The notes beneath the pieces were generated by a model. It ran no database searches. It had not been told where the DNA came from and was given only the letters and a program-made list of their open reading frames with translations. A DNA stretch of 64,000 nucleotides from Lachnospiraceae bacterium UBA4631 (GTDB lineage: Bacteria; Bacillota; Clostridia; Lachnospirales; Lachnospiraceae). Each line of letters begins with the position of its first letter. Within the stretch, counting starts at the first letter, position 1. A program made the position numbers and the translations under genes. Location of the stretch: assembly GCA_002406015.1 (NCBI GenBank), contig DHMX01000023.1, forward strand, positions 238,233 through 302,232. Direction: 5' to 3'. Shown here one piece after another: positions 41,979 to 43,713 of the stretch.

Positions 41979-43713
41979 ATGATTTCGCAGACAGACAGAC
42001 AGACAGACAGACAGACAGACAGACAGACAGACAGGTTATCCATCGGTTGATAAACCATGGCTTAAATATTATGAACGTGCACTTGATGATTCGGATATTC
42101 CGAAATGTAGTGCATACCATTTGCTTTACCAAAACAATAAGGATTATATGAATGATGTTGCACTCATTTATTTTAATAGAAAAATAAAATTCAAAGAGCT
42201 GTTTGACAAAATCCATAAGACAGCGGCATCACTCAAGGAACTTGGCATAAGGAAGGGAGATGTAGTTACTCTTCAGGTATTGAATATGCCTCAGGTTGTG
42301 GAATTGTTTTATGCAATCAGTTATATCGGTGCAGTAGCCAATCTGATATATGCATCTGCCTCTTGGAAAGAAACAAATGAGATTTTACACCGGACAGAAT
42401 CAAAGATGTATATAACCGTTGACTTTTTATGGACAAAACAACAGTGTGCTGTTGAGGGAACGAATGTAAAGCACATCTTGTTGCTCGGTACTGGCGAAGA
42501 GGCAGACGGCTTAACAAAGACTATAATAAAAATAAAATCAAATGCAATAAAAAATGATAGATGCATGAGTTGGAAGAAGTTTCTTGAAATCGGAAAGGAA
42601 ATGCCGGATGAAATAAATGAATCAGAGCTTCCGGTAGCAATGGTATACACTGGTGGAACTACAGGAAAGTCAAAGGCAGTTGTTCTGGCGAATAGAAGTA
42701 TGAATGCACTGGTATATCAGTATGCATATACATATGCATCGCTTCAGCGGGGAGAAACCTTTTTAAATACGTTACCACCGTTTATTGCATTTGGTATTGT
42801 ATTTACTTTACATATGCCGTTGTGCCTTGGCATTCGAAATGCCTTGGTAACAGATCCTGCACCGGAAAATGCAGGGAAATATTTCTGTAAATACCAGCCT
42901 AATTACTATATATGTGGAATTGCTGGTATCGATAGCATTATGAATCATAAAAAGATAAAGAAGATGAATTTGGAGTTTGTTAAGGTACTTGGTGCAGGCG
43001 GGGAGGCAATACCACATGCATTTGAAGAAAAGGTTAATAAATTTCTTAGAGAGCATAAGGCAGGTACTATATTATCGATAGGCTATGGGATGACAGAGGT
43101 TGCTGCCACAGCCGTAACATCAACGCCGGAGGTACATAGAACGGGAACTGTCGGAATTCCGCTTCCGGGAACAATAATTAAAATTGTTGAACCGGATACC
43201 ATGAAAGAACTCTCATATGAACAGGATGGGGAAATTTGCTTTTGCACACCTACTATGATGCTTGGGTATTATAAAAATGAAGAGGAAACGGACAACATTA
43301 TCAGATGCCATGCGGATGGAAAAAGGTGGATTCATTCAGGGGATATAGGACATATAAGCGAGGATGGATTTTTAACTGTTTCAGGCAGAATAAAGCGGAT
43401 GATTGCAACATGGGGAGAAAATGCATACCATAAGGTGTTTCCTCAATTAATAGAAGAACTGTTTGCGGAACTGGAAGGTATAAATGCAGTTACTGTCGTT
43501 GGAAGAAAAACAACGGATGTTTTTCATGAGTTGATAGCATTTGTTGTACTGGATGAGACTCATGGTGAAGAAGAAATGCTTAAGGTACTAAAGAAAACAG
43601 CAGAAGAAAAATTAGATACATGGGAGCAACCGGTTGAATATCGTTTTATGGAAAGACTTCCTAAAACAGCGATTGGCAAGGTTGATTATAGAAAACTGGA
43701 GACTATGGTGTAA
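41979..43713 (+). CDS. ANL adenylate-forming enzyme paralog 3; the ATG is separated from the body by (CAGA)11+CAG and is currently out of frame (phase OFF)
   Basis: ATG 41979 (RBS AAAGGAGGAG) reads MISQ(TDRQ)n..LSIG then TGA at 42048-42050. The body (track ORF 42121-43713; YTGGTTGKSKAV, GYGMTE, AIGKVDYRKL) is open in another frame back to 41983, where it reads ...DRQTGYPSVDKPWLKYY. Confidence 0.8.
41988..42034 (+). repeat. Perfect tetranucleotide repeat (CAGA)11 plus CAG
   Basis: Counted directly: 47 nt of uninterrupted CAGA periodicity starting 9 nt after the ATG. Confidence 0.95.

Follow-up and report, generated by a model that had tools for sequence, protein, structure and literature searches.

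We analysed a stretch of 64,000 nucleotides (nt; the window) from Lachnospiraceae bacterium UBA4631 (contig DHMX01000023.1), in which three genes for predicted acyl-adenosine monophosphate (acyl-AMP) ligases lie in a row. The third of them, ligase paralog 3, carries a (CAGA)n repeat at the beginning of its coding sequence. From the comparison of this repeat among assemblies, we consider it probable that the tract is a slipped-strand, translational phase-variation (contingency) locus controlling a FadD-like acyl-AMP ligase. A first-pass annotation of the window had proposed that this tract is a second, independent frameshift switch, currently OFF, next to a similar one in paralog 2. Tract lengths that differ between otherwise identical strains, together with the existence of in-frame alleles, support that proposal.

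The start region of paralog 3 was read directly (coordinates in Table 1). Its Shine-Dalgarno sequence, AAAGGAGGAG, is also found 5′ of paralog 2 and of the tract-bearing ligases in two other assemblies (L093 and L095). The leader at ATG 41979 is ATGATTTCG, and the encoded MIS-QT is the N-terminus common to paralog 1 and to orthologues of 564 amino acids (aa). In the OFF state the leader frame reads MISQTDRQTDRQTDRQTDRLSIG. Tandem Repeats Finder reported CAGA x11.8 with 100% matches at 41988-42034, and a pattern search of the 64 kilobases (kb) located (CAGA)n runs only here and at 40028-40074, within paralog 2. A 15-nt CAGA pattern gave 18 matches in the window, all inside these two tracts, compared with 0.01 expected from shuffles. 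The body frame (+1), open from 41983, runs on to TAA 43711-43713 and specifies a complete protein with AMP-binding and AMP-binding_C domains. Paralog 1 reads ATGATTTCA-CAGACAG-GTTATCC at 38284. Relative to it, paralog 3 is longer by 40 nt (10 units), a frameshift of one base, and 9 additional units (43 nt) or 12 (55 nt) would restore the frame. In general terms, the tract is in frame at 7+12k nt, that is at 7, 19, 31, 43 and 55 nt. The start codon, leader stop, tract, open body and unit count had all been given by the first-pass annotation and were confirmed, and the 43-nt allele was found in two other assemblies. With a perfect repeat in the 5′ part of an open reading frame (ORF) and a unit length not divisible by three, the tract has the form of a simple sequence repeat (SSR) contingency locus.

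The same locus was recovered from other assemblies (given here by handles such as L001) through exact-protein look-ups, and from one more (L092) through a DNA pattern match, the only match of a scan of metagenome contigs. We found seven tract lengths in paralog 3, ranging from 7 to 47 nt, with conserved flanks. ON lengths are 7 nt (L100, L101 and at least eight distinct 564-aa orthologues) and 43 nt (L007 and L092); OFF lengths are 11 nt (L010), 23 nt (L001, L093 and L099), 27 nt (L098), 39 nt (L011) and 47 nt (the window and ERZ808294, L006/L009). The gene calls obey the frame rule without exception: full-length proteins were called at the ON lengths (564 aa at 7 nt, 576 aa at 43 nt) and truncated proteins of 521 aa at all five OFF lengths. 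ON and OFF alleles of an intact downstream ORF are hence both present, as in a contingency locus, and leader and enzyme share one frame in L007, L092, L100 and L101.

The most telling comparison is that of the window with L007 (sample ERZ27300237). Over 10,646 aligned nt there are no mismatches and a single 4-nt gap, the loss of one CAGA unit, which brings paralog 3 into frame in L007. Furthermore, there are two groups of alleles within which the 1,677-nt body shows 100% identity: one comprises the window (tract of 47 nt), L006 (47 nt), L007 (43 nt) and L008 (at least 27 nt), the other L001 (23 nt), L010 (11 nt) and L011 (39 nt). Changes in tract length are therefore far more rapid than point substitution. 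The body was intact in 8 of the 8 alleles compared, and the ratio of nonsynonymous to synonymous polymorphism (pN/pS) between body allele groups was 0.25-0.38, which argues that selection maintains paralog 3 and that the gene is not in decay.

The ligases share a family-specific N-terminal motif, TGYPSIDKPWLKYY, and GYPSxDKPW within the N-terminus is at least 90% conserved in 20 diverse homologues. Because the internal starts TTG 42121 or ATG 42148 (521-aa product) would drop this conserved motif, it is very probable that OFF alleles are null. Members of the family naturally differ in how many residues precede GYPSxDKPW, so insertions of (QTDR)k are plausibly tolerated.

For paralog 2, tract lengths equal to 1 modulo 3 are in frame, and the two tracts vary independently of each other. 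The lengths in paralog 2/paralog 3 are 47/47 nt in the window, 15/23 nt in L001, at least 53/47 nt in ERZ808294 (whose ~18 kb outside the tracts match the window at 100% identity) and 43/23 nt in L093, where a chimeric middle paralog is ON (583-aa call) and paralog 3 is OFF. In L010, the 11-nt tract of paralog 3 is combined with an interrupted paralog 2 tract of 51 nt in total. The seed of paralog 1 is 7 nt long in every assembly.

Tracts of this type recur elsewhere. In a second species, with ligases ~58% identical to those of the window and a cluster consisting of resolvase, acyltransferases and ligases, one ligase begins ATGATTTCG(CAGA)nCAGGGTATCC, with the tract at the same codon as in the window. 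Three assemblies of this species contain tracts of 35 nt (OFF, 558-aa call), 31 nt (ON, 580 aa) and 19 nt (ON, 576 aa). By peptide search we identified in-frame (TDRQ)n N-termini on other family members, such as MISQTDRQTDRQTEHELTGFPSIDKPW and, from a Butyrivibrio metagenome-assembled genome, MLDRQTDRQTGELTGYPSIDKPW; degenerate tract remnants were seen in P0050, P0052 and P0055. A profile scan of genome contigs with the family alignment, for which generic AMP-binding motifs had been chosen, yielded distant relatives only (at most 38% identity) and thus no orthologous locus. The best tblastn matches against plasmids reached at most 28% identity, which means that no known plasmid gene corresponds to the locus.

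We propose the following mechanism. Slipped-strand mispairing during replication would add or remove 4-nt units at the CAGA tract. A tract of 7+12k nt would be read as MIS(QTDR)kQTGYPS... and yield the full-length ligase (ON), and at other lengths translation would stop after ~20 codons (OFF), as predicted for the 47-nt allele of the window with its TGA at 42048, in which the loss of one unit (43 nt) would restore the frame. With the independent tract of paralog 2, and with paralog 1 fixed ON, four ligase repertoires could arise per clone. The ligases lie beside PlsC-type acyltransferases, resembling a split version of Aas (acyl-acyl carrier protein synthetase/2-acyl-glycerophosphoethanolamine acyltransferase), and switching would likely result in a stochastic choice of the carboxylic or fatty acids that are activated and moved to a membrane or envelope acceptor. 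We infer slippage as the mechanism as well as any selective benefit, and the biochemical role of the ligase/acyltransferase cluster by analogy.

Several points weigh against the interpretation as a contingency locus. All tract lengths were taken from short-read assemblies, and it is from sequences that we infer reversibility and heterogeneity within one clone. Contigs assembled by SPAdes, MEGAHIT and Logan repeatedly end inside the paralog 2 tract (the ends of L002 and L003, the starts of L006 and L007). A near-consensus sigma-70-type element would set the transcription start inside the CAGA tract, 3′ of the start codon. The named FadD/long-chain-fatty-acid--CoA ligase equivalogs of NCBIfam are matched below their cut-offs (256 versus 705 bits for NF006181, 250 versus 476 for NF004837), and the substrate of the ligases is therefore not assignable. 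Expanded tracts are ON in 5 of 16 observations, the one third that is expected without selection on state. Finally, the stable 7-nt seed is all that many orthologues have, and the tract is consequently dispensable for gene function. Two arguments of the first-pass annotation also lost their force. Being one unit from an ON length is uninformative, since ON recurs every three units and every OFF length qualifies. The same motif at the same codon of two paralogs follows from an ancestral CAGACAG seed and gene conversion at the 5′ ends.

This seed codes for Gln-Thr, a conserved pair within the MISQTGYPS N-terminus, and is present in paralog 1 and in tract-less homologues. The regions 39987-40074 and 41946-42034 are 93% identical, though the proteins are only ~35% identical. 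In L094, the first ~50 nt of three ligases (at 6640, 9001 and 10715) are identical or nearly so; the middle paralog of L093 (522) is a chimera that joins the cassette of paralog 3 to a body start like that of paralog 1; and the number of ligases per cluster ranges from 2 in L100 to 4 in L095. Together, these observations point to gene conversion or recombination between the ligase paralogs.

The share of ON alleles and the common seed-only orthologues are what one would expect if the CAGACAG seed had grown by chance in redundant paralogs, mostly inactivating them, and the tract were a mutational hotspot and not a selected switch. The paralog 2 tract of L010, which is degenerating and out of frame, fits such a non-adaptive microsatellite expansion, as does paralog 1, which is always intact and could cover the function. 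On the other side stand the intact bodies under purifying selection, the perfect purity of tracts of up to ~12 units, the long tracts at the same position in the second species and in further family members, and the ON and OFF alleles that are one unit apart in an otherwise identical 10.6-kb background. The last observation implies that the states interconvert on very short time scales, whatever their selective value. On these grounds we favour a maintained switch over a dying gene and regard chance expansion as unlikely.

The promoter-like element TTGACA-16-TATGAT suggests a different alternative, in which transcription starts in the tract, or ribosomal or transcriptional slippage recodes the message, and the frame in the DNA is not decisive. 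The element is the best promoter-like match in a region of 12.4 kb (11/12) and occurs at both tract-bearing genes, with an identical copy at 39996-40023 whose -10 overlaps the paralog 2 ATG. In the L093 and L095 cassettes, TTGACAA is conserved despite a differing spacer. However, a transcript beginning in the tract would be without Shine-Dalgarno sequence and ATG, and there is no in-frame start before TTG 42121/ATG 42148, so the conserved N-terminal motif would be lost. Promoter-like matches are overall no commoner than in shuffles (49 versus 48.3), and tetranucleotide tracts are not known to serve as slippery sites for RNA polymerase or ribosomes. We thus judge action at the RNA level to be very improbable.

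An assembly or sequencing artefact that feigns both frameshift and polymorphism is hardly credible: contigs do often end inside the paralog 2 tract, and period-4 repeats longer than k collapse in de Bruijn graphs, but the paralog 3 tracts (at most 47 nt) do not reach the final k of the spanning assemblies (the L007 contig is named k119_), SPAdes contigs break only at tracts of at least 53 nt, independent assemblies agree in pairs on 47 nt (the window and ERZ808294) and 43 nt (L007 and L092), and the gene calls follow the frame rule throughout. The L007 contig (k119_204922 of ERZ27300237, apparently from MEGAHIT with k=119) begins ~42 nt into the paralog 2 tract. If the name reflects the k-mer size, this break at less than k may indicate mixed tract lengths within the sample. 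The contig breaks at the paralog 2 tract in ERZ808294 and ERZ27300237 are a hint of switching within a clonal population that is also explicable by the repeat itself.

Regarding the enzyme itself, the three ligases of the window are old paralogs with 34-36% identity. Matches to AMP-binding (PF00501; 212 bits, cut-off 29.9) and AMP-binding_C (PF13193; 44.9 bits, cut-off 24.5), the P-loop YTGGTTGKSK, the C-terminal catalytic Lys and the invariant residues T223, G225, T226, T227, G228, K231, G565 and K566 identify an adenylate-forming enzyme of the ANL superfamily (acyl/aryl-coenzyme A ligase type). The closest solved structure is that of FadD-1 (3g7s). Ligase and acyltransferase both weakly match the Aas model NF006386 (174 and 24.5 bits, cut-off 1221). 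Both acyltransferases have the H(X)4D motif, and with the NF006386 cut-off missed, the pair was not recognised as an Aas-type lysophospholipid re-acylation module. By analogy, the arrangement suggests a module in which an acid is activated for subsequent transfer to a lipid-like acceptor.

The window, on which the F-type ATP synthase genes atpA and atpD lie, is chromosomal. Its AtpD shares 89-91% identity with named proteins from Hespellia, Anaerosporobacter, Ca. Fimousia and Eubacterium sp., and this similarity assigns the organism to the Lachnospiraceae. The features of the ligase cluster are compiled in Table 1.

Table 1 Features of the ligase cluster and of the paralog 3 start region, in window coordinates.
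Feature	Coordinates	Strand	Remarks
Serine recombinase (resolvase/invertase)	34096..34710	+	
Unknown, 178 aa	34935-35471	+	
Unknown, 234 aa	35458-36162	+	one hydrophobic segment
PlsC-type acyltransferase, 323 aa	36159..37130	+	HSNSHD motif
DUF2806, 303 aa	37174-38085	+	
Small acidic ORF, 59 aa	38078-38257	+	
Ligase paralog 1	38284..39993	+	constitutively in frame; seed CAGACAG only (38293-38299)
Ligase paralog 2	40019..41774	+	ATG 40019; (CAGA)11.75 tract 40028-40074; OFF stop TGA 40079-40081; intact body from 40074
Promoter-like element TTGACA-16-TATGAT	41956..41983	+	11/12 consensus; -10 overlaps start codon
Shine-Dalgarno sequence AAAGGAGGAG of ligase paralog 3	41961..41970	+	8 nt 5′ of ATG 41979; read directly
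Start and leader codons of paralog 3, ATG ATT TCG (Met-Ile-Ser)	41979..41987	+	
Perfect (CAGA)11.75 tract of paralog 3, 47 nt	41988..42034	+	hypermutable element; starts at codon 4
TGA closing the OFF-state leader peptide of paralog 3	42048..42050	+	peptide of 23 aa
Ligase paralog 3 body, 559 codons	42034..43713	+	GYPSVDKPW...; intact, out of frame with the ATG in the window
Acyltransferase-like, 321 aa	43713..44678	+	H(X)4D; Pfam and TIGR00530 matches below threshold

The start of the acyltransferase-like gene overlaps the stop of ligase 3 (TAATG), and translational coupling of the two genes is possible. The resolvase is a conserved neighbour of the cluster in three contexts (window 34096-34818, L095 7161-7890, L100 1081-1704) and is 63% identical to the resolvase beside the homologous cluster of L095. 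The resolvase gene is followed by a segment in which a terminator-like hairpin and a TAGACT-17-TATAAT promoter on the minus strand lie between the arms of a conserved inverted motif, AAAAGTAGAC ... GTCTACTTTT. This segment looks like an inverton that might flip a cluster promoter, but all 15 of the 15 assemblies with the segment show one orientation, and we set this candidate aside as a side observation. Searches of the small and unknown cluster proteins with PADLOC, Pfam and NCBIfam returned nothing informative. For seven cluster proteins, among them paralog 1 as the only ligase, PADLOC-DB v2 gave no convincing defence match; the PifA match of the 234-aa ORF is marginal (E 0.0026, 14.4 bits, no stretch passing). 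ORFs of 77 and 59 aa were considered as carrier proteins and are not recognisable as such. Apparent variation in the DUF2806 protein (301-303 aa) and in the small ORF (52 versus 59 aa) was dismissed, as it reflects start choices of the gene caller on identical DNA. In L001, a 581-nt tandem duplication (2598-3188, corresponding to 35233-35813 of the window) affects the gene pair for the 178-aa and 234-aa proteins and creates an extra ORF of 196 aa.

In the flanks of the cluster there is a Schlafen/AlbA_2-helix-turn-helix (HTH) gene as well as a type III Wadjet system, with a Zn-dependent phospholipase-C-like gene (44679-45728, -) between the cluster and Wadjet; a weak phospholipase-C-like ORF also lies beside the cluster in L094. 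Wadjet (JetA3/JetB3/JetC3, 45681-52403) is directly downstream with very strong PADLOC matches, and no JetD-like ORF was identified there. The Schlafen-AlbA_2/HATPase_c_4/winged HTH ORF (32129-33505) contains a perfect 11-nt tandem repeat, AAAAGTACGGG x4, at 33272-33318. In ERZ27300237 (L105 388-423) this repeat has three copies compared with four in the window. The 11-nt gap is the sole difference in 3,026 nt and shortens the product from 458 to 402 aa, with loss of the C-terminal HTH, so that this repeat is likely a further frameshift switch in the same strain. Counting the CAGA tracts of paralogs 2 and 3, the island thus contains three or more repeat tracts that vary. An imperfect 13-nt tandem repeat, ATAGTATAACAGG x4.2 (76% matches), was found at 57483-57537, between or within ORFs.

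The genomic setting allows for a wider, rather doubtful speculation. Linked to the resolvase, the array of FadD-like ligases and PlsC-like acyltransferases might be a mobile 'acyl-diversification cassette' of Lachnospiraceae. In it, independent CAGA switches on single ligase paralogs and recombination at their homogenised 5′ ends would make the acylation of membrane or envelope lipids vary in a combinatorial, heritable and yet reversible way, with phage, bile or host immunity as the selecting agents. The cassette is located in defence islands, its neighbours being Wadjet and Schlafen/AlbA genes in the window and genes for HerA- and OLD-like ATPases in the second species.

For a few host-adapted pathogens (Haemophilus, Neisseria, Campylobacter), SSR contingency loci are textbook knowledge, and the phase variation known in the dominant gut Clostridia consists mostly of invertons. 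Our literature search for tetranucleotide or slipped-strand phase variation in Firmicutes, Lachnospiraceae or acyl-coenzyme A synthetases, which covered the field incompletely, retrieved no relevant report. This kind of locus is already known, and what appear to be new are the Lachnospiraceae host and the array of FadD-like ligase paralogs as its target. It is a useful case because of the clean one-unit ON/OFF difference in otherwise identical genomes, recurring across species, and because the switched enzymes are predicted to choose which acids enter an acylation pathway. If our interpretation is true, commensal Lachnospiraceae would vary their lipid or envelope chemistry stochastically within a strain. 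In practical terms, automated annotation shortens these genes (the 521-aa calls) and assemblies break at them.

The closest parallels are found in Haemophilus influenzae, in lgtC with (GACA)n and in lic1A, lic2A and lic3A with (CAAT)n. As in these genes, a perfect 4-nt repeat occupies the first codons of the ORF, and the lgtC motif is the same as ours up to rotation (GACA = CAGA). In lgtC, 8-38 GACA repeats lie in the 5′ part of the ORF, their number varying between strains, and H. influenzae tetranucleotide repeats gain or lose units at ~1e-4 per generation (PMC2651432). Copy number differs widely between strains here, too. The N-terminal tetrapeptides encoded by the H. influenzae repeats are hydrophilic (PMC2651432), and in-frame alleles of our locus likewise extend the N-terminus by a repeated hydrophilic tetrapeptide. 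Several loci switch independently in one H. influenzae genome, for which the tract lengths in different strains are our indication here. The differences concern host and target. H. influenzae is a pathogen of the Pasteurellaceae, whereas the host here belongs to the Lachnospiraceae, a Gram-positive obligate anaerobe of the gut, and the enzymes targeted are not glycosyltransferases for lipooligosaccharide (LOS) but cytosolic acyl-AMP ligases, which are paired with PlsC-type acyltransferases.

In Campylobacter jejuni and Neisseria, frameshifts at SSRs in several envelope-modifying genes yield combinatorial 'phasotypes' (PMC8437040, PMC5380846). Those loci have poly-G/C tracts, unlike the tetranucleotide tract described here, and enzyme class and taxon differ as well. 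With Escherichia coli Aas and FadD, the ligases share AMP-binding and AMP-binding_C domains, the P-loop and the C-terminal catalytic Lys, and with Aas also the association with H(X)4D acyltransferases, which adjoin the ligase genes. In contrast to Aas, ligase and acyltransferase are separate proteins here, and the window proteins differ from both Aas and FadD by scores far below the equivalog cut-offs and by an N-terminal motif of their own. A functional counterpart may be oafA of H. influenzae, in which a tetranucleotide repeat switches LOS O-acetylation (PMC2651432, PMC10505976). In both cases a tetranucleotide repeat would act on an acyl-transfer step that decorates an envelope molecule, which for our locus is argued by analogy. 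The repeat of oafA, however, is located mid-gene in a membrane protein of the Acyl_transf_3 type, whereas the switch described here sits on the acid-activating ligase.

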